From: Planctomycetota bacterium
GTDB lineage: Bacteria > Planctomycetota > B15-G4
Assembly (NCBI GenBank): GCA_965248575.1
Contig: CBDFJQ010000002.1
Coordinates: 1,367,574 to 1,431,573 of the forward strand
Direction of reading: 5' to 3'
DNA length: 64,000 nucleotides
Positions 1,452-57,738 of the stretch are shown here, in pieces. The notes under the pieces were generated by a model that made no database searches, was not told where the DNA came from, and was given only the letters and a program-made list of their open reading frames with translations. Position 1 is the stretch's first letter. The number at the start of each line of letters is the position of its first letter. The position numbers were made by a program, and so were the translations under genes.

Positions 1452-5129
<3,678 letters not shown>

Positions 5130-19608: not shown

Positions 19609-21033
19609 TCAGGCCTCGCCAGCGGTGGACAGCAAGCCGATGTAGCGTCGGAAACGCTGCAGCAGCAATTGCGGCCGGCGCAGCTCGCGCATGATGCGCG
19701 AGGGGCGCATGTAGAAGCTCCGGTAGGCCCGGCGGATGGCTGCGGACACCTGCTCGCTGCTCATGACCTTGGCCACACCCACAGGCGTGGTGCCCGTGAA
19801 CTTGTCGAAGTCGAACTCGTCCTCCTGCTCGGCCCGGCTCTCCTTGTAGAGCTTTGTGTCCGGGTACGGCGTCACCACCGTGAACTGGACGGTGTCGGGG
19901 TCGAGGTAGATCGCCAGGTCGATGGTCTCACGTGCCATCGCCGGGGTCTCCTCCGGGAAGCCGATCATGAAGAAGCCGCGCGTGGCAATGCCATGCTTCT
20001 TACAGGACTCCATGACGACCTTGGCGTGCTCGTGGCTCTTGATCTTGCCGCGGCTGTACTTCTTCTGCAGCCCTTCGTTGCCGGCCTCGATGCCGAAGGA
20101 GACCGAGACGCAGCCGCCGCGCGCCATGGCGGCGATGAGCTCGTCGTCCATGGTCTTGATGGCCGTCTCACACTGCCAGAGCACGCCGAGCTTTGCCTGT
20201 TCCAGCATGGCGCTCAGCTCGATGACGCGGTCGCGGTCGTAGGCAAACAAGGGGTCCCGGAACACGATGTTGGTCACACCTTGCTCGTGAACGATTTGTT
20301 TCAGCTCGTCGAACACATTGACGGCTGATCGGCCACGCCACGGAATGCCCTGCGCAACCACGTACCCGCAGTACGTGCAGTTGATGGGGCAACCCCGGGA
20401 GGACTGCACCGTCTGGATGGGCCCCTCCATCGTGGGGATGCGGTACGGCTCCACGGGCAACAGTGCGCGCGAAGGGAAGGGCAAGGCATCCAAGGCGTCA
20501 CCGCGCAACAGCGGGCGGTCCGGGTTGCTGCTGGCCCCGCTCCCACGACGCACCGTCAGGCCATCCACGGCCAGGGGGTCCTCCCCCGCCTCAAGAGCCT
20601 TGAGCATCTGCTCAATGGTCAGCTCCGGCTCGCCGCGCACCACCGCGTCCACCTGCGAACCCGCCATGGCCAGGTCCGGCACCTTGCTGCCCTGGCTGCC
20701 CGTGATGCAGACCACGCTGTCCGGGGACACCTCTTTGATGCGATCGACCAACGCCAGATCCAGCGAGATGGTCGCGCTGGACGTCGCCAGGACCACCAAC
20801 GGCGAGGGGTGGGCCGCCAGTGCCTCCAGCACCACGCTGTCGTCCGATCCGTCCGCCTCGGCGTCCACGACGCTGGCCTGGTGACCCGCCCGCTCCACGA
20901 TGGCCGCCACGTAGAGCAGGTCCAGGGGCGGATAACAGAGCCCTTCACCCACGACCATGCCAAAACCGCCCATGAGCCCTCGGCTCACGCGCTGACTAGG
21001 AGGTGGTGGTGGATTGACGAGCAAGACGTGCAT
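19609..21033 (-). CDS. Cobalamin-binding (class B) radical SAM enzyme
   Basis: N-terminal B12-binding Rossmann-like domain (MHVLLVNPPPP...LLYVAAIVERAGHQASVVD...), then the radical SAM core with the CxxxCxxC cluster motif (SSRGCPINCTYCG) and GGCVSVSFGIE. 474 aa. Confidence 0.85.
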   Translation of the reverse strand: MHVLLVNPPPPPSQRVSRGLMGGFGMVVGEGLCYPPLDLLYVAAIVERAGHQASVVDAEADGSDDSVVLEALAAHPSPLVVLATSSATISLDLALVDRIKEVSPDSVVCITGSQGSKVPDLAMAGSQVDAVVRGEPELTIEQMLKALEAGEDPLAVDGLTVRRGSGASSNPDRPLLRGDALDALPFPSRALLPVEPYRIPTMEGPIQTVQSSRGCPINCTYCGYVVAQGIPWRGRSAVNVFDELKQIVHEQGVTNIVFRDPLFAYDRDRVIELSAMLEQAKLGVLWQCETAIKTMDDELIAAMARGGCVSVSFGIEAGNEGLQKKYSRGKIKSHEHAKVVMESCKKHGIATRGFFMIGFPEETPAMARETIDLAIYLDPDTVQFTVVTPYPDTKLYKESRAEQEDEFDFDKFTGTTPVGVAKVMSSEQVSAAIRRAYRSFYMRPSRIMRELRRPQLLLQRFRRYIGLLSTAGEA

Positions 21034-21200
21034 GGGGCGGCGTGGATCCTATCAGGCTGCTCGCCAGAGTCGACGAGAGGCCTTCTTTCGCGCGTTTTCA
21101 CCACCCAACTTGAGGCATCTAAGTGCGTTGATATCAAAGGCTTAACCAAAGTCATCCAGAAGCACGTCCGAAGAAAGGTGTTCGAAACTTCATTGTCACT
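21034..21200. promoter_or_regulatory. Divergent promoter region with a locally AT-richer stretch, between the rSAM gene and the 1049-aa gene
   Basis: 167-nt intergenic gap between divergently oriented genes. The stretch aacttgaggcatctaagtgcgttgatatcaaaggcttaaccaaagtcatccagaagcacgtccgaagaaaggtgttcgaaacttcattgtcac is markedly less GC-rich than its surroundings. Confidence 0.35.
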
Positions 21201-31176: not shown

Positions 31177-32634
31177 TCAGATCTCGGGGAAGTCGCTGGA
31201 CACGGGAGCCTGGGTCTTGCCCAGCTTGAACGCACGGGCCACGCGCGCCTTGCCCTCGTCATCCCAGTTCTCGATGTAGTAACGAATCCGGGCCCAGTAG
31301 CGCTTCGCGCGCGAGGGGAAGGAGTCGTACCAGGCCTCATAGTCTTCCACGAGGCTGCGCTTGATGCGGTTCAGCTCATCGTTGCTGAAGTTCTCATGCA
31401 TGTAGGGCGAGCGGTCCGAGTCCACGTATTCGGTGCGCACGAGTTCCGGGTCGATGCGGTCCGCGTATTGCTCAAAGGAGGCAGTGGCCGTGAGCGGATT
31501 GAACAAGGACGTGCGCACACGGTCCGGCATCGCCGCCCGGATCCCGCGTGCCGTCTCTTCGATGTCCTCCATGGTCTCGCCGGGCGTCCCGACGATCAGG
31601 AAGACCTTCGACCAGATGCCTGCGCGACGGGTCATCTTCAGGCACTCGACCACCTTCTCGGCCTTGTAGTCCTTGATCAGCGTGTCGAGGCTGCGCTGGC
31701 TCACGGATTCCACACCGAAGTACATCCGGTTGAAGCCGGCCTTCTTCATGGTGCGGGCCATGTCGTAGTCGATCATGTCCACGCGCGTCTCGCAGGACAT
31801 GTTCAACTTCAGGCCACGCTTCATGATCCCTTCGCAGAGGTCGTAGACGCGCTGCTTCTGGCAGGTGAACAGCTCGTCGATGAACAGCACGTTGCCCGGT
31901 TCGTAGGTGTCCGAGATCTCCTGCAGCTCGTCCAGGATGTTCTCGACCGAACGCGTGCGGAATCCACGGCCCGTCAACTCCTTCTGGCAGAACACACAGC
32001 GGAAGGGGCAGCCGCGACTGGTGAAGATGTAGAACAGCTTCTCCTTGTTCATCGCGGAGTAGCGCGGGAAGGGAAGCATCTCCCAGGCCGGGAACGGGAT
32101 GCGGTCCAGGTCCTTGATGAGCGGGGGCTGGGGGTTGGCGTGCCGCGTGCCGTCTGCCTTGTTGAAGGCGATACCGGGCACCGACTCCAGGGCATCGCGG
32201 CCCTGGTCGACACCGCGGGCGAAGTCGACGATGGAATCCTCGGCCTCACCACCGATGACATAGTCGATAGCGCTGCCGGCATCCAGGAAGGTGTCCACGT
32301 CGACGGTGGCGTGCGGGCCGCCCATGACGGTGATCACTTCGGGCCGCGCCTGCTTCGCCTTCTCGGCGTAGCGGATGGCACGGTTCACGTGCGGCGTGAG
32401 CGCTGACAAGCCCAGGATGTCTGCCTTGGAGATGTACTCATCCACCTCGGCGGCGGTGCAGACGCGCTCGTCGCAGCACTCCACGTCGCAACCCGCCTCA
32501 CGCAGGATGGCGGACAGGTAGATGATGCCCAAGGGCATGGCGATGAAGAAGTCGTCCTGCCCCGGAGGGGTGACATACATCAGGATGATCTTCTTCTTGG
32601 TGACGGGGGCGCTAGGCGCGTTGTCGCTCATCAA
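31177..32634 (-). CDS. Cobalamin-binding (class B) radical SAM enzyme
   Basis: B12-binding N-domain (KKIILMYVTPPGQD...PLGIIYLSAILREAGCDVECCD) and the radical SAM motif FTSRGCPFRCVFCQ. 485 aa. Confidence 0.85.
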   Translation of the reverse strand: MMSDNAPSAPVTKKKIILMYVTPPGQDDFFIAMPLGIIYLSAILREAGCDVECCDERVCTAAEVDEYISKADILGLSALTPHVNRAIRYAEKAKQARPEVITVMGGPHATVDVDTFLDAGSAIDYVIGGEAEDSIVDFARGVDQGRDALESVPGIAFNKADGTRHANPQPPLIKDLDRIPFPAWEMLPFPRYSAMNKEKLFYIFTSRGCPFRCVFCQKELTGRGFRTRSVENILDELQEISDTYEPGNVLFIDELFTCQKQRVYDLCEGIMKRGLKLNMSCETRVDMIDYDMARTMKKAGFNRMYFGVESVSQRSLDTLIKDYKAEKVVECLKMTRRAGIWSKVFLIVGTPGETMEDIEETARGIRAAMPDRVRTSLFNPLTATASFEQYADRIDPELVRTEYVDSDRSPYMHENFSNDELNRIKRSLVEDYEAWYDSFPSRAKRYWARIRYYIENWDDEGKARVARAFKLGKTQAPVSSDFPEI

Positions 32635-37176: not shown

Positions 37177-38373
37177 TCAGTGAGCCCCCACCACGAGCTT
37201 CTCGCGCAGGAAGTTGGCCACGAGCCGGCCGCGCTCGGCCCAGTCGTAGGGCAGCACATCCTGTTCGGCCTGCAGTGCCAAGCGGGTGCGCAAGGCCTCG
37301 TCCTGGATCAAGGCGTCCAAGCCCTCGGCCATGGCCGTGGGGTCGTCGGGCGCCACGAGGTAGGCGTTGGCATCGTGCTGCAGCACCTCCCGCAGGGAGG
37401 GCAGGTCGGTGCCGAGGATGGCCCGACCGCTGGCCATGGCCTCGAACATCTTGAGCGGCGAGGTGTACTTGCGGCTGATGGTCTCGCGCGCGCTGTTGGG
37501 CAGGGCGATGACATCGCCGGCAGCTAGGTAGAAGGGCACGGCCTGATGCGGAACGCTGCCCGCGAGGATCACGCGCCCCGGCGCGTGTAGCGCTACCAGC
37601 TTCTCGATACGGGACAGGTTCGGCGCGTCGCCTCCGACCACCAGGAGTTGCGCCTGTGGCAGTTGGCCCATGGCCTGCACCAGGGTGTCCACTCCCTTCC
37701 ACTCGTAGAGCTGGCCCGCATACACCACGGTCGGGACATCGGCCCGCAGCGAGAGGTGCTGGCGTGCATCCTCGACACTGGGACGCGTGGCGAAGCGCGA
37801 CAGGTGCACCCCGTCACGCGCCACGAGGATCCGGCTGGACTCAAGGCCCTCGCGCTCCAGGTCCTGCTTCAGGCCGTCGCTGATGACCACCACGGCCCGC
37901 AGCGATTTGAGTGCCGCCACCACTCGTCGTAGACGCCCTCCTGCTTCGGGCAGGTTGTGGATCTCCGCCGCCACCCGGGCACGATCCCCCGCCCGCAAAC
38001 CACCCACCAGGATCTCCAAGGTGTAGTGATCGCGCACCAGGATGCCCGCGTCCCGCTCCACCGCCGCTCGCGCCAAGGCGCGCAACCCGAACGTGATGGA
38101 CTGCATCAGGAAGGGCACGCGCTGGGCCGAGGGCTTCACCATGTCGATGGTGTCGATGTTGGCGATGCGACAGACCTCGAAGTTGCGCCGCACGCCGTAG
38201 TGCGCCCAAGGGTCCACGGCGCGGTACGGGAAGCGGCGCGGCACCACCACATCCACCACCAGGCCCGTGTCCGCCAAGGCCTCGGCCATGGCCGCCACCT
38301 GGATGCCGTGCGCCCGCACGCCAGGGAAGCGCACGTTGACAATCAAGTCGAGACGGGTGAGGTCGCTGCTCAC
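37177..38373 (-). CDS. Glycosyltransferase family 4
   Basis: ORF 37177..38802, but the first 140 codons overlap the upstream gene. Likely GTG start (complement 38371-38373) overlapping the upstream stop (GTGA), giving VSSDLTRLDLIVNVRFPGVRAHGIQ.... C-terminal GT4 motif VIALPNSARETISRKYTSPLKMFEAMASGRAILGTDLPSLREV. Confidence 0.75.
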   Translation of the reverse strand: MSSDLTRLDLIVNVRFPGVRAHGIQVAAMAEALADTGLVVDVVVPRRFPYRAVDPWAHYGVRRNFEVCRIANIDTIDMVKPSAQRVPFLMQSITFGLRALARAAVERDAGILVRDHYTLEILVGGLRAGDRARVAAEIHNLPEAGGRLRRVVAALKSLRAVVVISDGLKQDLEREGLESSRILVARDGVHLSRFATRPSVEDARQHLSLRADVPTVVYAGQLYEWKGVDTLVQAMGQLPQAQLLVVGGDAPNLSRIEKLVALHAPGRVILAGSVPHQAVPFYLAAGDVIALPNSARETISRKYTSPLKMFEAMASGRAILGTDLPSLREVLQHDANAYLVAPDDPTAMAEGLDALIQDEALRTRLALQAEQDVLPYDWAERGRLVANFLREKLVVGAH

Positions 38374-40595
38374 GGTGAGTCGTCGCCTTCCGTGGGAGAG
38401 CTTCCGGCCGGCTCCTCGGGAGCCTGGCCGTTGAAGCCCGGCGGCCACTGGAACGGTCGGCGATAGAGATCCTCTTCGAGGATCTCGTTGGACCCCGTCA
38501 GCTGCCCGAGGTCGCCAGCCTGCAACAGCTTGAGCGCCTCCGCGCTGCCGGCCATGGCCGCGGCCTTCGCGTCTTCCGGCATGTCGCCTGCATAACCGAG
38601 CGCCACCAGACTCTTCATCTGGTTCAGCAGCGCCTGCTCGTCGCCCACCCCGGCCGACATGGGCACTTCCGGCATGGCGGCGTCGTGCAGTTTGTAACGG
38701 GCTGCGATCGCCGCGAAGGCCTGCGCGTAGGCCGGGTCGTTCAAGTCCAGGGGACTGTGCTCGCCGGGGTCGTCGATGAGATCGAACAAGCGCGTCGTCC
38801 ACTGCGCACCCTGCGCCTTGCTCAACGGTGCGAAGCGGCTCTGGGTGAGCTTGTAGCGTTCGTTGCGCATGGAGACGTAGCGCACGTTCTCTGCCACGAC
38901 GTGTCGCTCGTCTTCTCCGGGGTCGACGCCTGCAGCATCGGGCGCGAGGCTGCGCCCCGGTGACGGTCCTCCCGCGACCGCCAGGGTTCCGACACCCGCC
39001 ACGTCGAGCACCGTCGCGGGCAGGTCACGCATCTCCACCGGCCAGGTCACACGCGCCCCACCGTGTTGCTTGCCGGGGAAGCGCACGACCATCGGCACCT
39101 GCAGGTTGGTCTCGAACATCCAATCGTGTTCGAACAGGCCGTGGTCGTATAGCTCTTCACCGTGGTCCGAAGTGAAGATCACCAGGGTGTTCTCGTCGAT
39201 CTCCAGCTCGGCCAGCAGATCGAGCAGGCTGCCGAACATCTCGTCGGCAAAGCTCACGCCACCGTCGTAGAGCGCATTGACGTGTTCCACATCGCGGCCT
39301 GGGTCAAAATGCTCACAGCTCCAGGTCTGCTGACTGTCGTGTTCGCAAACGCCCTGCTGCTGCTGCTTCATGATCCACTGCCCGTGCTTCTGCCGGAAGG
39401 GGTGGAAGTAGCCCCCGTACTCAGGGTCGTAGCGACCGTCGTAGGGCGCCGGCGGCTCATAGGGTGTGTGCGTGCTGTAGTAGTGGACCAGCGCAAAGAA
39501 CGGCCGGTCGGCGTGCTTGCGGATCCAGCCCAGGGCCTCGGTGTTCACGAGCCGCGGGTCCATGGCCTGGCGCGTCTTGTTGTAGAGGATCCAGAGCAGC
39601 ATGCGACTGCGCACCACCGACCACTTGCTGTGCCGGTTCACCGCTTCGTGCCCGACGATGGTCTCGAAGTAGGTGTCGAAGCCATGCAGCAGCCCGGTGT
39701 CGTTGGACAGGGTCCCCGTCAGGAAGGCCCCCGTGGCGTAGCCCTGCTCCTGAAGCGCCTGGGCCAGCGTGCGGTTGCTGTCCACATCCAGTTGCTGCCC
39801 GGGCCACATCTTGATCAGGCCATGCTCGCGCGGGTACTTGCCCGTGAGAAAGCTGCCGAAGGAGGTCCAGGTGAAGGGTGCCTGGGCCCACGCGGTCTCA
39901 TAGACCACACCCTGTTCCGCCATGCGGTCCACGTTGGGAGAGATGTCAGGCGTCTTCTCGTAGCCGTAGCACCCCAGCCGATCGGCACGCAGGGCATCCA
40001 CCACCACATAGAGGACGTTGGGTGCGCCCTCCGGAGCGCCGCCCCGCCCGGCGGTGAGACTGGCCTCGCGCGCCATGGCCCAACTTCCAGCGACCGCGAG
40101 CAACAGCGTCACGACCAAGGTCGTCACCCGGCCCGGCACCCTGACCAGCCCGCCCTCCCGCACCAACATGCGGGCACCCAGGGCTGCCACCACGACCCAC
40201 GCCAGCGTCAGAGCGAGTCGCTTCGGGTGGTGGAACGGCAGCCCCCACGAGAAGTCCCAGAGCTGCTTGGTGTGCCAGTACAGGTTTACGAAGAGAGCTG
40301 AGGCCACCATCAGTCGCGGGGCCAGGAGTTCGGCGCTGCCTGGCGCGGGAGCACGACGCCTCAACCGACTCAGCATGATCACGGCCAGCGTGCAGCCGAG
40401 GGCACCGAGGACCCCGTAGTGCGCGGCCCCCAGGATCAGCGTCGCGGCAAGGTCCACCCCATCGAGGGGCGGCACATCACCCAGGCGCCCCCAGAAGCTC
40501 ATCCAGGGCCCCATGCGCACCACCAGGGCTTCGAGCAATCCCCACACAGCGCCCCACACGAGCCCAGAGGCCAGGGCTTGGCGCAGCTGATTCAC
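38370..40595 (-). CDS. Membrane-anchored alkaline-phosphatase-superfamily enzyme (sulfatase / phospho-substituent transferase-like)
   Basis: 741 aa. Five N-terminal TM helices, then a catalytic domain with PNVLYVVVDALRADRLGCYG and FTSDHGEELYDHGLFEHD, which are metal-ligand motifs of the sulfatase/LtaS/EptA superfamily. Confidence 0.75.
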   Translation of the reverse strand: MNQLRQALASGLVWGAVWGLLEALVVRMGPWMSFWGRLGDVPPLDGVDLAATLILGAAHYGVLGALGCTLAVIMLSRLRRRAPAPGSAELLAPRLMVASALFVNLYWHTKQLWDFSWGLPFHHPKRLALTLAWVVVAALGARMLVREGGLVRVPGRVTTLVVTLLLAVAGSWAMAREASLTAGRGGAPEGAPNVLYVVVDALRADRLGCYGYEKTPDISPNVDRMAEQGVVYETAWAQAPFTWTSFGSFLTGKYPREHGLIKMWPGQQLDVDSNRTLAQALQEQGYATGAFLTGTLSNDTGLLHGFDTYFETIVGHEAVNRHSKWSVVRSRMLLWILYNKTRQAMDPRLVNTEALGWIRKHADRPFFALVHYYSTHTPYEPPAPYDGRYDPEYGGYFHPFRQKHGQWIMKQQQQGVCEHDSQQTWSCEHFDPGRDVEHVNALYDGGVSFADEMFGSLLDLLAELEIDENTLVIFTSDHGEELYDHGLFEHDWMFETNLQVPMVVRFPGKQHGGARVTWPVEMRDLPATVLDVAGVGTLAVAGGPSPGRSLAPDAAGVDPGEDERHVVAENVRYVSMRNERYKLTQSRFAPLSKAQGAQWTTRLFDLIDDPGEHSPLDLNDPAYAQAFAAIAARYKLHDAAMPEVPMSAGVGDEQALLNQMKSLVALGYAGDMPEDAKAAAMAGSAEALKLLQAGDLGQLTGSNEILEEDLYRRPFQWPPGFNGQAPEEPAGSSPTEGDDSP

Positions 40596-40698
40596 AGGTC
40601 ACTCCAGGGGGAACCGATCGCGCATCGTAGATCCTTGGGCGGGGCCAGACTACGGCGCGCTAGAGAGCAGCTCCTCTCGACTGATAACCTCCCCCAGC
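40596..40698. promoter_or_regulatory. Divergent promoter region between the two AP-superfamily genes
   Basis: 103-nt gap between a minus-strand operon start (40595) and a plus-strand gene start (40699). Confidence 0.35.
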
Positions 40699-43600
40699 AT
40701 GAGTGAGGGGCACGACCGACATATGCGCCGCAACAGCATGCCGTTGCTCCTGTCCATCACGGGGCTGGTGTCCGCTCTGGTCTGGCCAGGGAGCGTGCTG
40801 GCCTGGCTGCCTCTGCTGCTCTGCCCGGGCTGGGGTCTGGCCAGGCTCGTCTCCGTCATCGACCGGAACTTTGGAGTTCTCGGTTCTGCCCTGTGCCTCT
40901 CCCCGCTCGTCCTGGGCTCCCTGACCCTCGTGAGTGCTGCCGCGGGCTGGCCGTCCGACCGGCTGGCCCTGGCCGTCCACATCACGTCGGTGGGCCTGTG
41001 CCTGCTGGGCCGCATCCGGCTCGCCGTCTACGACCGCTGGCTGGGGCGCCAACCTCCCATCGACGGGCCCATGCCCTGGTGGCCGGAGAAGCTCTGGGTC
41101 TGCGTGACGATCGTCGTGGTTGCCGTCGCCGCCGGAGCCGAGGTGGTCCCCCTGGACGAGGCTGCGGCCGGATCTCCCCGGCTCGTGGTGGCCAGCGAGG
41201 CGTTGGCCTGGCTGCAGGGCGCCGAGGATCCCATGCACGCCGGCCGGCCCTTGCCCATGGGCTCGCTCCTTTCCGGCGCCTCTGCGGCCCTGGCGGCGGG
41301 TGCCGGCTTGCACCCGCTGGAGTCCACGCAGTTGCTCTCGTGGTCAGCCCTCGTGGCCTGCCTGGTCCTGGCGGCGGAGAGCATCTCGCGACTTTGGGGC
41401 AATCGGGGCGCGGTGCTTGCGATGGCGGCAGTTCTGTTGGGGCTGAACCCGTTGGCCCTCGCCTTCCTGTTGGGCTCCGACGGTGTGCGCATCGACTCGC
41501 AACACCTCACCGCGGACTTCTCCCCCCAGCTCACCACGGCTATCGCTCCCTTCCTGGACGCAGCACCGCTGGCGCTGGCCCTGGCCTTCACGGCCATGCT
41601 GCTCTCGTCGACCCTCTCGATCCTTCGGCGCTCCAGCTATCACGTGCCACGACTCGCTGGCCTGGCAACCCTGGGCCTCGTGCTGACGGACGCCCGCGCG
41701 GCGCTGCTGCTGCTGCCCGGTTGGTTCGCTGGCCTGGCCCTCGCGCACCTCGCGTGCCGGGACAGCAAGGACAACGACCCGCAGCTCAACTCCAGTGTGC
41801 GCCGCCCGGGCGAACCGCTCATCCTCCGGGCTCCCTTCTGGAGACCCGCGCTGCACATCGCGTTGGGCGCGGCCGTGGGTTTCGCGCTCGTGGACCTCCC
41901 GACCTACGACGTGCAGCTTTCGCGCGTCGTGGTCTGGGGCTTGGTGGCCGCCGTGGGCCCGGGCTGCATCCTGTTCATGCCTGGGATTCGCCACCTGAAC
42001 GCCAGCCCAGGGCGCGAGGCGTACTTCTTCCTGCCCGCGGTGGCGGTCGCCGCGCTGTTGGGGATGACGGTGCAGTTCGATGGCGACCAAGGCAATCTGG
42101 TGGTGCGCTTGCTGGCCCTCGTACTCGCCGTCCCCGCGGCCAACGGCGCCATGAAGGTCATCGAGCTGCACGGCCTGCGCGCCACACTGCTGTTGATCTT
42201 CCTGACCTTGATCACGCTGCCTGGTCCGCTCGTCGTCCTCCGTGAAGCTCGCGACACAGCGCGACCGCTGCACTGCGTGGACCACGACTCGGTGCGCTGG
42301 GCCGAGTTGGATGAGGGCATCGCCAGTGCCCTCGCCCTGGTTCACGAGCGCAGCACCCAGGACGCCGTGCTGATCCTGGACGAGCTCCCGGACGCCCACG
42401 ACTTGTACGCGCTGTATCTCTTGTCAGGGCGTCCACTGGTGACCATCCCGAAGTCCACCCTGCTCGACAGCAGCAACGCCTATCAGCGTCAACCCGAGAC
42501 ACTCTCCCGCCCCGAGCGCACAGGCTCCCGGCGCGATCTCGTGAGCCGCCTCTCCCACGGTGATGGAACGGCACTCGCCCGCCTGCGCGGCAGTCGCGGC
42601 CTGCAGGGGCGGGAGATGTGGGCTGTGCACGAAGGGGACAGCTGGCCCGGCTTCCACCCCCAGCGCCAGGCCAGTGCATTGTTGGTGGAGCGCGCCGAAC
42701 TGCCGGACATCGTGCTCGTCACCATCTCGAGCCTGCGTGTGGACCGGGTCAACGCGGACTCCATGCCGGCCCTCGATGCCCGCAGCAAACAAGGCCTGCT
42801 GTTCGAGACAGCCATCACGCCAACGCCCAGCACGGGGCCGGGGCTCGCCAGCTTGCTTTCCGGCCTCTCCCCCGTGGAGCACGATGTGCGCGACGACGGC
42901 CGGCGCCTCTCCGCGGACATCCCAGGCTTGCAGCGACAACTCGCACTACGGGGTTACCGCTCCTCCGCCGTGGTCGCCCTGGGGTCCGACTCCGGATTGC
43001 TCAGGGGCTTTGAACAGGTGCGCGCTGAGTCGACTCTCGATGCGGAGCATTTGGTGGACCTAGCCACTCAACAACTGAGCCTGGCCGACCCCCGCCCTGT
43101 GTTTCTCTGGGTGCACTTCTCGGACCTGGAGCTGCCCTTCGAGGTTCCAGAGCACGCTCGCACGGCAATCACCGGTCCACACGACTTCCCCGACAGCTCG
43201 AATCTCGACGCGACGCGCTACGGCGTCGCTCCCTTTCCTCCCTCGGCGAATCACAGGGGAGAGGTGGATCTCAAGACGGGCGTGGCGCAATACGACGCCT
43301 TGGTGGGCATGGTCGACCGGGAGTTGGGCCGCCTGCTGCAGTCCATTCCGGAAGACGACCTGCTCGCGGTCACGGCCCCCCACGGCACCAGCCTGTCCGA
43401 GCACGGCGCCTACTTCATGCACGGCCCCGACCTCTTCGAACCGTCCATCCATGTTCCGCTGATCGTCGTCGGCGGTGGCATGCCCGTCAGTCGCAGCGGC
43501 AGCCTCACGAGCCTCGAGGACATTCCCGACCTGTTGCTCATGGGCCGGCTCCCTGTTCGCGAACGGGTGATGCTCGAAAGCGCGTGGCGCCCCGGTCTGG

Positions 43601-43857
43601 GCACCGGCGCCGCCTATCCGGCGGACATCGACCCGACGGCACGCGGAGCGGCGCGGCGCATCTGGGGCGAGCGTTCGGCCACCGGCAAGACCTTGTTGAC
43701 GATCAAACCGGATGCCGGTCAAGGCGCGCGCGGGCTCCGCTTTGATCTTGCGGCTGATCCGGATGAACTCCACGGCCAGGCGGCTGACCCCTTCGCCTTG
43801 CGACGGGTGGACACCTGGCGCAGACGCGGCCGACCGGCGAGCGTTGATCTGCCGTAG
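40699..43857 (+). CDS. Large polytopic membrane protein with a C-terminal alkaline-phosphatase-superfamily (sulfatase-like) domain
   Basis: 1052 aa. The N-terminal ~560 aa hold many TM helices (Wzy/O-antigen-ligase-like hydrophobic profile). The C-terminal domain begins PDIVLVTISSLRVDRVN...GLASLLSGLSP and contains APHGTSLSEHGAYFMHGPDLFE, both AP-superfamily-like. The exact start (40699, 40723 or 40738) is uncertain. Confidence 0.6.
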   Translation: MSEGHDRHMRRNSMPLLLSITGLVSALVWPGSVLAWLPLLLCPGWGLARLVSVIDRNFGVLGSALCLSPLVLGSLTLVSAAAGWPSDRLALAVHITSVGLCLLGRIRLAVYDRWLGRQPPIDGPMPWWPEKLWVCVTIVVVAVAAGAEVVPLDEAAAGSPRLVVASEALAWLQGAEDPMHAGRPLPMGSLLSGASAALAAGAGLHPLESTQLLSWSALVACLVLAAESISRLWGNRGAVLAMAAVLLGLNPLALAFLLGSDGVRIDSQHLTADFSPQLTTAIAPFLDAAPLALALAFTAMLLSSTLSILRRSSYHVPRLAGLATLGLVLTDARAALLLLPGWFAGLALAHLACRDSKDNDPQLNSSVRRPGEPLILRAPFWRPALHIALGAAVGFALVDLPTYDVQLSRVVVWGLVAAVGPGCILFMPGIRHLNASPGREAYFFLPAVAVAALLGMTVQFDGDQGNLVVRLLALVLAVPAANGAMKVIELHGLRATLLLIFLTLITLPGPLVVLREARDTARPLHCVDHDSVRWAELDEGIASALALVHERSTQDAVLILDELPDAHDLYALYLLSGRPLVTIPKSTLLDSSNAYQRQPETLSRPERTGSRRDLVSRLSHGDGTALARLRGSRGLQGREMWAVHEGDSWPGFHPQRQASALLVERAELPDIVLVTISSLRVDRVNADSMPALDARSKQGLLFETAITPTPSTGPGLASLLSGLSPVEHDVRDDGRRLSADIPGLQRQLALRGYRSSAVVALGSDSGLLRGFEQVRAESTLDAEHLVDLATQQLSLADPRPVFLWVHFSDLELPFEVPEHARTAITGPHDFPDSSNLDATRYGVAPFPPSANHRGEVDLKTGVAQYDALVGMVDRELGRLLQSIPEDDLLAVTAPHGTSLSEHGAYFMHGPDLFEPSIHVPLIVVGGGMPVSRSGSLTSLEDIPDLLLMGRLPVRERVMLESAWRPGLGTGAAYPADIDPTARGAARRIWGERSATGKTLLTIKPDAGQGARGLRFDLAADPDELHGQAADPFALRRVDTWRRRGRPASVDLP

Positions 43858-43879
43858 CCATGCCCTCTGCCGACGGGCC

Positions 43880-43982
43880 GGCTGGATCTGTCTTTGGACA
43901 GCAGATCTGCTGCTCAGACAACGAGGCAAACGGACGCCTCGAAAACTCGCCTCAGATCTGCTGTCCAAAGACAGATCCAGCC
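43880..43982. repeat. Perfect 30-bp inverted repeat with a 43-nt spacer at a convergent gene junction
   Basis: Left arm ggctggatctgtctttggacagcagatctg (43880-43909) and right arm cagatctgctgtccaaagacagatccagcc (43953-43982) are exact reverse complements. Each arm also contains the self-palindrome cagcagatctgctg / cagatctg. Confidence 0.9.
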
Positions 43983-43998
43983 TCATCGGTAAGAGGCT

Positions 43999-45891
43999 TC
44001 AGGCTTCGGTCCAGGTCTTCTTCCAGCTGCCTTGGACGGTCAGGGTGACGGGAGTGCCGGCGGCGCGTAGCTCCACCAGGTGGCCCCGTTTCGTGAGGTC
44101 GGCGCCATCGGCCTGGACGTCCACGTCCTGGAGTGCGACCGGGAGTTGGTAGCGCGCGAGGCCGTGGACATTCTCCAACCTCAAGACGTCCGTCAGGCGC
44201 ACGCGATCCTCTTCGAACGTGTAGTGGCGTTCCGTGCCGGTGCCGGGGACCCGCTGGCCCCGACCATCCGCCAGCGCCCCTTTGAAGGTGACGGACTGGC
44301 CGTCGAACTCATGCTCGGTCTGGATGTCCTGGTGCGCGGCGCACCAGGGGCTCGACTCCTGCACGCTGCGCACGAGGACGTGCCGCCAGGGGTAGGCCAG
44401 GCCGCGCAGCAGACCGTGGCGCGCCTTCAGTTCGATGCTGGTGACGTAGAGTCGGAAGCGGACGTCGCTCTTCTCTGCCTTCAGCCAGCGCACCCAGCGT
44501 GCGGTACGGGACCCAGCTTTCGACGGGCGCAGGAGAAAGCTCCCGGGTCGCTCACGCTGGAAGCGCACGCGCGGCACGTCTTCCCGGCCTGGTGTGCGAC
44601 CGTCGCTGGCCCATACCAGGGACTGCAGGCTTCCGCCGCCCAGGTCGCACCCGAACAGGTTGCTTGCCCCCAGGCTCTTGCCACGCAAGATTGCGGTGTA
44701 GGCGATGCGCTCCACGTGCAGCAGGCCCGAGTGCGCCAGGTCGATCGTCATGGGTTCGCGCGGGGCAGCGCGCAAGGACACATCGGACAGGACCCTCGCC
44801 GCCCAGGCGGCGTGCCCCGTCCAGAAGATGCGGCACTGGAAGTTCACACCGGCGCCGTGATGGCTGTCTGCGCCTCCGTCCAGGGGATCGATGTGGGCGA
44901 CCCACTCCTCCATGGCGCGACCGGCTTCATTGGCGAACATCGGTTCGTTCAACACCCGAGAGCCCGTCTGCAGCGCGTACGCGTCAAAGGGGTGGCTGGC
45001 GACTTCGTAGGCGCTGACCCAGTACCAGGCCTTGGCCTCGTTGTGCAGGACCTTCCGACCGAGCCCATCCCGGAAGGCCACAAGCGCCCGCAAGCTGGTC
45101 GTCAAGCGCTCGCGAGCCCAGTCACTCAGGCTGGCATCCACACCCTCCATCCGCTCCAGCACCTCGTGCACATAGAGCACGAAGCCCGGCGTCCGGGAGT
45201 GGTAGAAGGTCGAGGTGTCTGCCAACCCTGGATGGGTGCAGTGGTCCGTGTGCGCAGGGATGTACGGGGCCACCCCGTCCGGGGCCAACTCAGCGAGGGC
45301 TGACGCACAGCCCGTGAGAGCATCTTGCGCCCAGTCCTTGCGCCCCAAGCAGCGCGCGGCGCGGGCCACGCCCGTGGCCGCCCACAGGCGCTGCGCGGTA
45401 ATAGGCCGCTCCCGAGCGGCATGCCTCAGATAACCCTCAACGTGTCGTTCCAAAGCATCCCGGCAGCGGGCCGTCTCGGATTCATTGAACAGCTCCGGCA
45501 CGTCCTCCAGCAGCGTGGCGATGGAGTCCGCGCACGCCCCGCCATCAATGGCATTGGTCGACGCGTTGCGGTGGTCAATGCGTCCCGGAAGGAAGACGGG
45601 CACCTTGCTCTGGGGGTCCAGACCCAGGTGATCCACGCTGCGGAGCACCTGGCGCTTGCCGCGCTCGAGGAACTCCTCCTCGCGCGTGTTGCGCCAGGCC
45701 TCGAGGTTGATCACCGCGCCATACGTCAGCTTCCCCGTGTGCTCCACCCGATGGCGCGGGCACAGGCATTCGCCGTCGGGGCCCGTGTACTTCTCGAAGA
45801 AGTTGGACAGGCCCCGCAGGATCCCCAAGCGCAGTTGCACGTGATTCTTCATGCGCGTCTTGCCGCTACCAGGCGCAGGAGAAAGGCTCAC
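43999..45891 (-). CDS. Hypothetical 630-aa protein (Cys/His/Trp-rich; possible polysaccharide lyase/hydrolase-like accessory enzyme)
   Basis: Long ORF with good GC3 bias, translationally coupled to the upstream GT4 (ATGA overlap at 45888-45891). No motif I can assign with confidence. Confidence 0.5.
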   Translation of the reverse strand: MSLSPAPGSGKTRMKNHVQLRLGILRGLSNFFEKYTGPDGECLCPRHRVEHTGKLTYGAVINLEAWRNTREEEFLERGKRQVLRSVDHLGLDPQSKVPVFLPGRIDHRNASTNAIDGGACADSIATLLEDVPELFNESETARCRDALERHVEGYLRHAARERPITAQRLWAATGVARAARCLGRKDWAQDALTGCASALAELAPDGVAPYIPAHTDHCTHPGLADTSTFYHSRTPGFVLYVHEVLERMEGVDASLSDWARERLTTSLRALVAFRDGLGRKVLHNEAKAWYWVSAYEVASHPFDAYALQTGSRVLNEPMFANEAGRAMEEWVAHIDPLDGGADSHHGAGVNFQCRIFWTGHAAWAARVLSDVSLRAAPREPMTIDLAHSGLLHVERIAYTAILRGKSLGASNLFGCDLGGGSLQSLVWASDGRTPGREDVPRVRFQRERPGSFLLRPSKAGSRTARWVRWLKAEKSDVRFRLYVTSIELKARHGLLRGLAYPWRHVLVRSVQESSPWCAAHQDIQTEHEFDGQSVTFKGALADGRGQRVPGTGTERHYTFEEDRVRLTDVLRLENVHGLARYQLPVALQDVDVQADGADLTKRGHLVELRAAGTPVTLTVQGSWKKTWTEA

Positions 45892-46934
45892 GGGAGACGC
45901 CTCATGTCCGCAACAAGACGTGGTACGAGCTTGTCGAGATCGTGTTCGGCCAAGACGCGCCCACGGAGTTCCTGCCCCAGCGACTCCCGATCGCCTGGGG
46001 ACAGGGAGAGCAGGCGCTCCAGGCGCATGGCCAGGCCTTGGATATCACCCTTCGAGAACATCAGCGTCGCCGCCAGCTCGGGGCCGAGCACCCGTTCAAA
46101 GGACTCGTTGCAGGTCAGCACAGGTGTCTCGCACGCCATGGCCTCGAGCACGACCTTGTCCACGCTGCCGGTGCGACTGGCGTTGACCAGGACTCGAGCC
46201 CGACGCATCACGTCGGCAATGTGGGGATAGCTCACAGCCCCCAGCAGCCGCACGCCACCCAAGGCAGCCGCCTGGTGCCCCAAGCTCGAACGGTAGGAGA
46301 CATCCCGATCGAGAAGGACATCTCCAGCGATCTCCACCTGCGTTTCGCCATCGAGCAGACTCACCGCCTCAAGGATCTCGTGGTGCCCCTTGCTCGGCGC
46401 CAGACGCCCTACCGACAGTACATCCACGGGGCGCAAGGCATCACCCGGCCCGAAGTGTTCACAGTCGATGCCGTGGCCGGTGACCACGCGCTTGTCTGTG
46501 GCCGAGGCCAAGCGGAAGGACTCCTCGGAAGCGCTGAACACCCTGCGCACCAAAGGCACGGCCATCTTGAGCGCCCGATCCACCCCCTTGTGCGTGTACC
46601 AGAGGTAGAGGGGAATCCTGCGGGGAACCGTGACGGGCGCGGCGTAGAGAACGAACTTGGGCACCATGTGCGCCAAGAGCGCGTCCGGCCGTCGCTCACC
46701 TCGAAGCCCCATCAGCACGCGGACCAGCCGGGCCTCCATGGCGAGCAGGCCCGCCCCCCGCTCCTTGCCCAGCGACCGGACCTCGACGTTGGCGGGTAGC
46801 TGGGTGTCCCCGACCCGCTGAGCGATGACCGTGAGCTGCTCCACATTCTGGGCGAAGGATTCGCACCAGCGATGGAAGAAGCCCAGAACGGCATCCTGCC
46901 GGTCGAGCACTTGCGTCAGGAGGACGATGTGCAT
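45888..46934 (-). CDS. Glycosyltransferase family 4
   Basis: 348 aa. C-terminal LVNASRTGSVDKVVLEAMACETPVLTCNES is a GT4-like E-x7-E region. Confidence 0.8.
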   Translation of the reverse strand: MHIVLLTQVLDRQDAVLGFFHRWCESFAQNVEQLTVIAQRVGDTQLPANVEVRSLGKERGAGLLAMEARLVRVLMGLRGERRPDALLAHMVPKFVLYAAPVTVPRRIPLYLWYTHKGVDRALKMAVPLVRRVFSASEESFRLASATDKRVVTGHGIDCEHFGPGDALRPVDVLSVGRLAPSKGHHEILEAVSLLDGETQVEIAGDVLLDRDVSYRSSLGHQAAALGGVRLLGAVSYPHIADVMRRARVLVNASRTGSVDKVVLEAMACETPVLTCNESFERVLGPELAATLMFSKGDIQGLAMRLERLLSLSPGDRESLGQELRGRVLAEHDLDKLVPRLVADMRRLP

Positions 46935-48196
46935 GACGGCGCAGCATGACCGCTGTTCGCCATGGTCTCCAGCCCGGTCTCCAGGCCACTTTCCCGCACG
47001 GCTCTCAGCGCCTCATCGGTCACCAGGTCGGGGTCGATGGGAATCACCGACCCGCCCATGACCTCGGCGTAGATTTCTGCGAGGCGAGCCGCCACGGCCT
47101 GGGCCGTCATCTGGGGTCGCGGACGCAGGCGTGCAGCGGCCCCCATCGCCTGCCGCAGCTCGGGCTCCGCCGCCAGTCTTTCCAGCCCGGCTGCCAGACC
47201 GTTCACGCTGTCGGCTTCCGCGAGCAGGCCGTCCACACCGTGTCGAACCAACTCGGGCACTCCACCCACGGCACTGGCCACGACGGGCACACCCGCCTCC
47301 AAGGCTTCAACCAGGACTTGCGGCAAGCCCTCCCGGCGCGACGACTGCAGGAGCATGTCCAAGGCTCCGTAGACATCCCCCAACTGGGCCCGCCCCGGCA
47401 GGTGAAGGGCCCCCGGCAAGCCAGACAGCTGGTCACGGGCAGACTGATTGCCGCTCCCTTCGCCCACGACGAGCAGGCGCAGCGGTGCCCCTGCGGCCCG
47501 TGCCCGCCCGACCGCCTGCACGGCGAGGGGCAGGTTCTTCACCGGTTCCAGGCGACCGACCCAACCCACCAGCAGCTCGTCGGGGCGGACTCCCAGTTCT
47601 TCCCGCAACGCCGCCCCCGCAAGCTGGTCGGGCGCGGTCCGTTGGGCGTCGATGCCCGGAGGGATGATGGCGTATTGATCCCGGCGACCGACGTGGTGTT
47701 GGTCCACCAACTCGTCGCGCACGGCCTCGGCCACGGCGATCAGCTTGTCCGTGCGGCGGGCCAGATAGGATTCCGTCAGCGCGAAGGCCCGCGACGTCAG
47801 GCTGCCGAAGTAGCCCGAGAGAACGTGCCCATGGTAGGTGTGTACCCGACGGGGAGCGGGGTGCAGGGCTCCCGCCGCCAGCCGGCCGAGAACCCCGGCC
47901 TTGGCAGTGTGGGTGTGGACGAGAGCGGGTTTCACCTCACGCACCAGCCGACGCAGCGCCACGGCCGCCGCGATGTCCTGCCGAGGGCGCACGGCCCGGC
48001 CCAACTCGGGAATCACGTGCACGCGCATGCCCGCCTCGCGGGCCTCATCAATCAGGTCGGCTTCACCCTCTTCGACGGAACCCGTGGCCAGGACCGTGCG
48101 CCAGCCGTGACAGCGCAAGGGTGCCGTGACCCGGATCACATGGCGCGCCGGCCCACCCATGTTCAGGCGAGCGATGACGCGCAACAGCTCAGGCAT
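46916..48196 (-). CDS. Glycosyltransferase family 4
   Basis: 426 aa. LLQSSRREGLPQVLVEALEAGVPVVASAVGGVPELVRHGVDGLL is the GT4 signature. Confidence 0.8.
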   Translation of the reverse strand: MPELLRVIARLNMGGPARHVIRVTAPLRCHGWRTVLATGSVEEGEADLIDEAREAGMRVHVIPELGRAVRPRQDIAAAVALRRLVREVKPALVHTHTAKAGVLGRLAAGALHPAPRRVHTYHGHVLSGYFGSLTSRAFALTESYLARRTDKLIAVAEAVRDELVDQHHVGRRDQYAIIPPGIDAQRTAPDQLAGAALREELGVRPDELLVGWVGRLEPVKNLPLAVQAVGRARAAGAPLRLLVVGEGSGNQSARDQLSGLPGALHLPGRAQLGDVYGALDMLLQSSRREGLPQVLVEALEAGVPVVASAVGGVPELVRHGVDGLLAEADSVNGLAAGLERLAAEPELRQAMGAAARLRPRPQMTAQAVAARLAEIYAEVMGGSVIPIDPDLVTDEALRAVRESGLETGLETMANSGHAAPSCTSSS

Positions 48197-49115
48197 GTTG
48201 AAGCGCCTGCTTCAGGATGTCGTCCAGGGCCCAACGCGGCCGGAAGTCGATGCGGCGTCGCAAGGCCTTCAGGTGGGGTGCCCGGCGCGGCAAGTCCTCA
48301 CGGCCTGCTTCGGCTGGTGTGCACGTCACGCGCGCGCCGCGTCCAGCCAACTCCGCCATGCGCTGGGCCAGACCTGCAATGCTCGTGCGCTCTTCGGAAC
48401 CCAGCTCGATGACTTCGAAGCCTTCCGCCAGGGGTGCTCGCAGCAGTGACAGGGTCGCCGAGACGCAATCATCCACGTGCAGGAAGGAACGCTGCTGGAC
48501 GCCCGTGCCGTGCACCGGCATCTCCTGGCCAGTGCGGGCGGCGACGGCCATGGCCGGCAGGACCATCCCGGGAGCGCATTGTCCAGGCCCCACGATGTTG
48601 AACGGGCGCACGATGGTGACCGGCACCCCACCGGGTTGAGCCGCTTGCTCCGACAGGAGGGCTTCCGCCGCACGCTTTGCTTCGGCGTAGATGGAGCGCG
48701 GCCCCCGCCGCCCAGCATCTGTCACTTCGCTGGTGGAGAAGAAGAGCAGCGGAGCGCCCGCCCTGCGGGCAACAGCCAACGCGACGTCCGTCCCCTCAAG
48801 AATCACGGAGCCGGTGCGGGCGGGGTCGGCCAGAACAGCCTCCACGCCCACCACGGAAGCGAGGTGTACCACCGCATGCACACGGGTGGCACCGTTCATG
48901 TCAGCGGCGAACGCCCCCGCGGCCGTCTCCACGGGTGCCTGTCGCCGGACGTCCCCCACGTGGACCCGCAAGTGCGGGTGCTCTGGAAGCGGCAAGCTGC
49001 TGGGAGCCGAGAAGTCATCCAGGACGCTGACCCGGTCGCCAGCCTGCAAGAGCCGGCGCACCAAGTGCGTGCCGATGAACCCAGCACCTCCGGTGACGAG
49101 CAACGTACGTGTCAT
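48189..49115 (-). CDS. NAD-dependent sugar epimerase/dehydratase (SDR family)
   Basis: MTRTLLVTGGAGFIGTHLVRRLL (GxxGxxG) and a YxxxK equivalent (SIYAEAKRAAE). 308 aa. Confidence 0.85.
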   Translation of the reverse strand: MTRTLLVTGGAGFIGTHLVRRLLQAGDRVSVLDDFSAPSSLPLPEHPHLRVHVGDVRRQAPVETAAGAFAADMNGATRVHAVVHLASVVGVEAVLADPARTGSVILEGTDVALAVARRAGAPLLFFSTSEVTDAGRRGPRSIYAEAKRAAEALLSEQAAQPGGVPVTIVRPFNIVGPGQCAPGMVLPAMAVAARTGQEMPVHGTGVQQRSFLHVDDCVSATLSLLRAPLAEGFEVIELGSEERTSIAGLAQRMAELAGRGARVTCTPAEAGREDLPRRAPHLKALRRRIDFRPRWALDDILKQALQHA

Positions 49116-54324: not shown

Positions 54325-54339
54325 GGGATTCTCCTCGTT

Positions 54340-54529
54340 TGTGAAGCAAGGGCCCCATCGGCGCGTGACAAAGCTTTACAGCATTACAAATCCTATCTGT
54401 ATGGATGTATGCATCCTTACACCTTAACTAGCAATGACTTATTGACGATTCGGATTATTGGTCAATACTTCACATGTCGACAGAAGCGCCGCTCGACTGG
54501 GCCCGAAGCCTTCTCCGGACTTCCAGCAC
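54340..54529. promoter_or_regulatory. AT-rich divergent control region between the regulator and aceB, with candidate promoter and operator repeats
   Basis: The only strongly AT-rich stretch in the window. Direct repeats ACAAAgctttacagcattACAAA (54368-54390) and TGTATGgaTGTATGcat (54399-54415). Candidate -35 TTGACG (54442-54447), 16-17 nt spacer, -10-like AATACT/ATACTT (54464-54470), upstream of the aceB ATG at 54530. Confidence 0.45.
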
Positions 54530-57521: not shown

Positions 57522-57609
57522 TCAGCTCCGACCGTCGGGTCCCACGGCCCGGGGAATGGATGGGGGCCGGAACATGTCCCGGCTCCTGACCATCCTGCCA
57601 AGGTCCTGC

Positions 57610-57644
57610 GGGGGCGAGTTGCACTCTGCGCGCAGCTCGCCCCC
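57610..57644 (+). terminator. GC-rich hairpin downstream of aceA (9-bp stem GGGGGCGAG/CTCGCCCCC)
   Basis: gggggcgag-ttgcactctgcgcgcag-ctcgccccc lies 90 nt after the aceA stop. There is no U-tract, which is common in high-GC genomes. Confidence 0.35.
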
Positions 57645-57738
57645 GTTGCATTCGGCACCCCCGCTCCGGTCGGCGCCCCGCCCTAGTTGGCGAAGCCGTC
57701 ATCGGTGAGCCATGCCGTGCGAGGTAGACTCCCGAACG

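Follow-up and report, generated by a model that had tools for sequence, protein, structure and literature searches.

The described elements closest in form to the one reported here are REP dimers or REPINs and RAYT-/TIRYT-associated TIR repeats (Bertels and Rainey, 2011, PMC3116915; Di Nocera et al., 2013, PMC3733652), which are non-coding intergenic elements of about 100 nt whose two inverted units fold into one long hairpin. Their spacers measure 20-100 bp and often contain small stem-loops, the elements sometimes lie inside host palindromes, and REP units are tagged at one end by a conserved tetranucleotide, GTAG or CGTC (PMC3733652). Such repeats occur in the PVC group, including Planctomycetes, and Rhodopirellula baltica possesses many tyrosine-transposase genes with flanking repeats (PMC3733652). 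The REPs of E. coli act as dual terminators and stabilisers, and their presence between convergent genes is correlated with raised expression of the two (bioRxiv 10.64898/2026.03.23.713779). The Correia elements of Neisseria (CREE, nemis) are non-coding MITEs of about 100-150 bp with terminal inverted repeats of 26-30 bp, which produce a TA target duplication, are present in hundreds of copies, and carry an IHF site and promoter-forming ends (PMC2649163). When co-transcribed with adjacent genes they form a long RNA hairpin that may be cut by RNase III or may protect the transcript (PMC2649163). Inverted repeats are also homogenised and expanded by template switching of the polymerase (PMC8604942, PMC13100816), a process documented at quasipalindromes of E. 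coli (PMC7202029).

The element studied here is located in a 64-kb window (the whole stretch of DNA that was analysed) of a Planctomycetota genome and measures 103 nt. Its left arm (43880-43909, GGCTGGATCTGTCTTTGGACAGCAGATCTG) and right arm (43953-43982, CAGATCTGCTGTCCAAAGACAGATCCAGCC) form an inverted repeat that is complementary at 30 of 30 positions across a 43-nt spacer (43910-43952), in agreement with the coordinates and sequences of an earlier sequence-only reading, which had described the arms as exact reverse complements 43 nt apart. The spacer has an apical stem of its own, consisting of 6 bp (CGAGGC at 43922-43927, GCCTCG at 43936-43941) around an 8-nt loop, and the centre of this stem lies at most about 1 nt off the symmetry axis of the main repeat. 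The inner end of each arm is the 8-bp palindrome CAGATCTG, and the two identical copies are 51 bp apart. The left-hand copy grows into a perfect 14-bp palindrome, CAGCAGATCTGCTG (43899-43912), which spans the border between left arm and spacer, with the consequence that the 11-nt CAGATCTGCTG is directly repeated, at 43902 and at 43953. Each arm further contains the mini-hairpin CTGTC-TTTG-GACAG and GATCTG motifs at a spacing of 20 bp. Open reading frames across the 103 nt are spurious overlaps only. With its perfect 30-bp terminal repeats, short length and lack of coding sequence, the element has the form of a MITE.

The repeat lies between two convergent genes, as the sequence-only reading had placed it. 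The plus-strand gene (40699-43857) encodes a protein of 1052 aa whose N-terminal region is long and whose C-terminal domain belongs to the sulfatase superfamily, and the minus-strand gene (43999-45891) encodes a 630-aa protein of a family that is conserved in Planctomycetota MAGs and metagenomes. Both are real open reading frames with clear homologues or domains and conserved C-termini, and the convergent arrangement is real. The element is set off from the two stop codons by 22 and 16 nt. The encoded proteins are intact to their last residues (one ends in ...RRGRPASVDLP*, its orthologue in ...RRGRPASVDVAEEP*, and similar); because they end like their orthologues, the extra DNA is purely intergenic. 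The 630-aa protein had no sequence match in Pfam, NCBIfam or PDB. Its 85 homologues (P0001-P0085) are at best 75% identical and none reaches 90%, and all of those named by organism are from Planctomycetota MAGs; it is a conserved uncharacterised family. A few of the homologues carry a precomputed alginate-lyase hit (PF05426).

A small inverted duplication could also have been introduced spuriously during metagenome assembly. The source is apparently an uncultured lineage whose proteins are absent from large collections, and chimeric reads can yield perfect repeats. Artefactual foldbacks are, however, typically long and situated at contig ends, whereas this repeat is internal to the window, has intact genes on both sides, and its arms are separated by a unique 43-nt spacer. 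We therefore regard an assembly artefact as extremely unlikely.

Within the window the repeat stands alone. At up to three mismatches the 30-mer occurs in two places only, namely the two arms, which bears out the earlier statement that it is found once in the window, and 100 dinucleotide-preserving shuffles gave 0 matches. A scan of the whole window identified it as the sole long perfect inverted repeat in 64 kb, the runners-up being 71-89% complementary. The 141-nt gap between the two genes folds at -88.4 kcal/mol on the plus strand and -93.9 kcal/mol on the minus strand, and none of 200 shuffles was as good; the RNA folding that the sequence-only reading had suggested returned a z of about -11 on both strands. 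The 103 nt alone reach -73.3 kcal/mol as RNA and -43.9 kcal/mol as DNA (z -11.6). Among 1,825 sliding 140-nt windows the most stable one, at -84.6 kcal/mol (mean -51.6, sd 7.7), is the one at this site, at a G+C content of only 0.58.

Taken singly, an arm reaches only -4.1 kcal/mol (z -1.4 and -1.9; equalled by 22/200 and 11/200 shuffles) and forms the 5-bp CTGTC/GACAG stem plus 3 bp across a bulge, nothing more, and the spacer alone as DNA reaches -6.4 kcal/mol (z -1.9). The nested palindromes that the sequence-only reading had seen in each arm are present as the 8-bp CAGATCTG and the mini-hairpin, but the single arms fold no better than shuffles and only the 14-bp CAGCAGATCTGCTG stands out; the emphasis that this reading gave them lacks statistical backing. 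In the folds of the 141-nt gap the stem pairs outward to 43862-43997, which is nearly the whole gap. An interpretation of this extension as an insertion into the loop of a pre-existing hairpin or as a longer, decayed terminal repeat was not sustained, since random flanks equalled it in 18% of trials.

Compared with REP dimers and TIR repeats, the element shares the length of about 100 nt, the non-coding intergenic position, the two inverted units that form one long hairpin (Bertels and Rainey, 2011, PMC3116915; Di Nocera et al., 2013, PMC3733652), a spacer of 20-100 bp with a small stem-loop, the missing target-site duplication and the location between convergent genes. Unlike in REPs and REPINs, the arms carry no GTAG/CGTC tag and are singly unstable, no further copies were found in the searched collections, and no RAYT is present among the scanned genes of the window. 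GTAG, CTAC, CGTC and GACG are all absent from both arms; the only GACG of the element is at 43933 in the apical loop region, and a GTAG at 43854 shares bases with the stop codon of the plus-strand gene. REP units are required to be stable imperfect palindromes with a stem of about 8-10 bp or more, and the single arms are not. A candidate assignment of the nested palindromes as REP units was accordingly discarded, as single arms fold no better than shuffles. The 30/30 identity of the arms would also be unusual for a REP heterodimer. REPs number tens to hundreds per genome and have a cognate RAYT (Y1 transposase) gene that the same repeats flank, while the 64 kb contain one copy. With the Correia elements it has in common the size class of about 100-150 bp, terminal inverted repeats of 26-30 bp and the lack of coding sequence (PMC2649163), but it differs from them in having no duplication, in being single-copy in the searched sequence and in lying at gene 3' ends only. 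A search against Rfam gave nothing at the gathering threshold, the best match being a plant miRNA-precursor model (38 bits versus 197), which reflects a generic resemblance of long hairpins.

The position of the element calls to mind a bidirectional terminator, and the sequence-only reading had listed a very stable one among its possibilities. Like intrinsic bidirectional terminators, the element places a hairpin tens of nucleotides past both stop codons, and this hairpin is symmetric on both strands. A terminator that works independently of a U-tract and was selected to keep converging RNA polymerases out of the opposite gene would fit the 22 and 16 nt that separate the repeat from the stop codons and the equal strength of the hairpin on both strands, and the 33-38 nt gaps of relatives carry small G+C-rich hairpins. 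Unlike Rho-independent terminators, the element has no flanking A/U tracts: the first 12 nt past the stem hold 3 T on the plus strand and 1 T on the minus strand, so the canonical intrinsic type lacks support. A scan for terminator-like sites (43000-45000) and for promoter-like sites around the element found none. The stem of 30 bp is three to four times the usual length, in line with the earlier remark that it is far longer than a terminator needs, and its arms have only 53% G+C in a 65% G+C genome. Moreover, selection for pairing alone needs no 30/30 identity, relatives whose gaps are 3 and 27 nt long have a working junction that lacks any hairpin, the hairpin is not conserved at the orthologous junction, and the other convergent pairs of the window manage with gaps of 4, 7 and 48 nt. 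A purpose-evolved terminator of this kind therefore appears improbable to us.

The palindromes within the element could alternatively form a site that is read at the DNA level, namely an operator bound by a dimeric regulator, or a binding site of the recombinase or partition type, centred on CAGATCTG and CAGCAGATCTGCTG. The two 8-bp palindromes at a distance of 51 bp, the extension of one of them to 14 bp and the 20-bp spacing of GATCTG in each arm would suit such a site. It would, however, be located at the 3' ends of both genes, away from any promoter-like site and with no regulator, recombinase or integrase adjacent, and the motif is not conserved at the junction of relatives. The attC core sites RYYYAAC and GTTRRRY were both missing from 43850-44010, and the stem is perfect and free of bulges, unlike the extrahelical bases that attC requires. 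The attC, dif and operator readings were rejected for want of supporting features, and the operator or recombination site proposed in the sequence-only reading has nothing positive in its favour: a promoter context, a nearby regulator or recombinase, and attC or dif features are all missing. The window holds 4 copies of CAGATCTG (1.7 expected), and the frequencies of CAGATCTG and GATC in the window are near expectation. We consider a DNA-level site very unlikely.

Base composition was likewise examined as a sign of foreign origin. The element has a G+C content of 0.55 compared with 0.65 for the window, but this value falls within the window's intergenic range of 0.44-0.72, which counts against an acquired insert. 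A foreign composition was therefore dismissed as an argument either way, also because AGATCT and GATC are neither avoided nor enriched. Low G+C values are found in two intergenic regions with divergent promoters, 54325-54457 (0.44) and 21034-21200 (0.52); the former lies between a gene for an HTH-M78-ScfR-type regulator and the malate synthase and isocitrate lyase genes.

In order to see the junction in other genomes, we compared five independent syntenic loci (L002, L003/L004, L005, L025 and L026) with 66-75% identity over the 630-aa protein. The gene order epimerase - GT4 - GT1 - 630-aa gene, converging on the sulfatase-like gene, is kept in all five. The gap at the junction measures 78 nt in L002, 27 nt in L003/L004, 3 nt in L005, 38 nt in L025 and 33 nt in L026, as opposed to 141 nt in the window, and a comparable repeat is carried by 0/5 of these gaps. 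None of them clearly beats shuffles in folding, which argues that a big hairpin is no general requirement at this junction. The absence at orthologous junctions, together with the short gaps at other convergent pairs, marks the large hairpin as a lineage-specific addition. According to the sequence-only reading, absence from close relatives with otherwise identical flanks would point to a recent insertion. The repeat is indeed lacking in the five syntenic relatives, but their flanks are only 66-75% identical in protein, so that an insertion cannot be called recent, and a longer ancestral gap is conceivable at this distance and speaks against insertion.

Subtracting the 103 nt from the gap leaves 38 nt, a value inside the range of the relatives. 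The residual left part (43858-43879) and right part (43983-43998) join to a reconstructed 'empty site', CCATGCCCTCTGCCGACGGGCC|TCATCGGTAAGAGGCT, which forms a modest hairpin of -13 to -15 kcal/mol that is not significant (z -1.0 to -1.5), as 15% of random 38-mers fold as well. It resembles the hairpins of the L025 and L026 gaps and is consistent with an insertion into the loop of a pre-existing hairpin. The check for target-site duplications suggested by the sequence-only reading turned up nothing beyond chance: only 2-3-nt matches were seen, at asymmetric boundary shifts and at chance frequency.

The window is core chromosome, with rpoB, rplL, rplA, rplK, nusG, secE, tuf and a tRNA run, as well as trpS/tyrS-type genes, dtd, and aceA/aceB with a regulator. 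It also includes a large polysaccharide cluster of many GT4/GT1 glycosyltransferases, a flippase-like protein, radical-SAM enzymes, sulfatase-superfamily proteins and an epimerase. Among about 45 window genes scanned with Pfam there was no transposase (including the tyrosine type), no Y1/RAYT and no integrase, which upholds the earlier observation that no transposase flanks the repeat.

Further copies were searched for in several collections, by exact 18-20-mers and with the source genome in none of them. The window and the syntenic loci contained no second copy, complete or partial. A core 20-mer gave 0 matches in 185,579 species genomes (one genome per species, the source genome not among them) and 0 matches in IMG/VR. 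The terminal 18-mer gave 19 single matches in the 185,579 species genomes, scattered over unrelated phyla, where we estimate that about 17 are expected; these were rejected as chance, since 0/19 extend past the 18-mer and 0/19 have a partner arm. A blastn search against plasmid and phage collections returned nothing. At the level of such exact matches, and outside its own genome, these searches show that the element would not be part of a widespread, sequence-conserved family. The generic REP-like repeat with many copies that the sequence-only reading had considered gained no support from them.

In the JGI metagenomes the core 20-mer had one match (L001, contig Ga0179593_1822787). It was dismissed as a copy and attributed to chance, being 22 nt long, in AT-rich DNA, devoid of an inverted partner and part of a diverged-palindrome contig. 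This contig contains, at 1634-3246, a large diverged inverted duplication of about 20 collinear inverted segments that are 71-100% complementary and arranged about a midpoint near 2500. Whether a genuine long palindrome or a foldback produced by assembly, it has no connection with the 103-nt element.

The main rival to an insertion is a local origin without mobility. A longer ancestral spacer would have contained a quasi-palindrome or imperfect hairpin, which polymerase template switching then homogenised and lengthened in one or few events; the outcome would be a single-copy structure and at most a local 3' hairpin. Like the repeats expanded in this manner (PMC8604942, PMC13100816, PMC7202029), the element is single-copy, with perfect arms beside imperfect symmetry, and needs neither a transposase nor a duplication. 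Template switching would thus account for the single copy in the searched collections, for the missing target-site duplication and for perfect arms next to imperfectly symmetric inner parts, and the palindrome CAGATCTG at the inner end of both arms, extending to CAGCAGATCTGCTG, would offer it microhomology. The 78-nt gap of L002 shows that the gap length varies in the lineage and supports a local origin. On the other hand, one switch adds at most 30 nt, that is one arm, so that the other ~73 nt must be ancestral, and four of the five relatives have gaps of at most 38 nt. Reading of the sequence revealed no microhomology at the outer switch points, and an intermediate, imperfect version is not at hand. 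Documented template-switch events are mostly shorter, and the extra ~100 nt relative to most orthologous gaps would also have to be explained. On balance we judge a local template-switch origin somewhat unlikely, although it is a serious contender.

We tentatively favor, at a confidence slightly short of even, the explanation that this 103-nt sequence is a foldback insert specific to the lineage, free of a target-site duplication and shaped like a MITE or REPIN, which serves both mRNAs as a passive 3' hairpin. The insert would have been acquired in a 3' spacer of about 38 nt between the convergent genes of a conserved polysaccharide cluster, and its closest form would be a miniature palindromic mobile element of the MITE or REP-dimer type that leaves no target-site duplication. 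We infer that the element arose by insertion, that it is mobile and that it may affect RNA. Against an acquired insert stand the lack of a second copy in any searched collection, of a target-site duplication beyond chance, and of a transposase, RAYT or integrase among the scanned window genes. In kind the element is an ordinary object, a small palindromic insert or hairpin, which is unusually perfect and single-copy among the searched sequence.

Since the element starts 22 and 16 nt past the stop codons, we propose that transcription carries it into both mRNAs at their 3' ends. In each of them it would fold into a perfect 30-bp stem of about -73 kcal/mol and would probably act passively, as a barrier and as a hairpin that protects the 3' end, limiting read-through into the antisense gene. 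A perfect duplex of 30 bp is a textbook substrate of RNase III, and we propose, as an alternative role of the insert, that it is a processing site. By analogy to REPs and Correia elements, the hairpin would either stop read-through and hold off 3'-exonucleases, or serve RNase III as a cleavage site. A more far-reaching version, which we regard as a long shot, is that the Planctomycetota have an undescribed family of duplication-less foldbacks, of which this element would be the first to be seen, and that such foldbacks enter the loops of short terminator-like hairpins where genes converge and turn a weak 3' hairpin into a 30-bp dsRNA that resets termination and RNase III processing of both transcripts.

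If the element is an inserted foldback, it would represent a clean natural case in which about 100 nt of selfish or accidental palindromic DNA alter the 3' ends of two genes with the coding sequence untouched, in a phylum, the Planctomycetota, whose terminators and small mobile elements are barely described. Beyond annotation its practical weight is small: it marks the border of two transcription units in a conserved uncharacterised polysaccharide cluster and is a candidate RNase III or termination site for transcriptomics in this lineage. A more conventionally terminator-like stem than that of the 103-nt element, likewise with no obvious U-tract, is found elsewhere in the window at 57609-57645, 3' of the isocitrate lyase gene, where a G+C-rich hairpin of 14 bp (CGGGGGCGAGTTGC / GCAGCTCGCCCCCG, 93% complementary) encloses a 9-nt loop.

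All six retrieved loci have the 630-aa gene within this polysaccharide cluster, and the cluster at 38370-49115 of the window is kept across distant Planctomycetota (L002-L005, L025 and L026). The conserved set comprises the epimerase, the GT4 and GT1 glycosyltransferases, the 630-aa protein, the convergent membrane and sulfatase-like 1000-aa protein, a second sulfatase and another glycosyltransferase, which suggests a pathway for a sulfated or phospho-substituted polysaccharide. Two B12-binding radical-SAM enzymes, both encoded on the minus strand (19609-21033 and 31177-32634), are furthermore found within the window's glycosyltransferase cluster or at its side and are unusual companions for polysaccharide genes.
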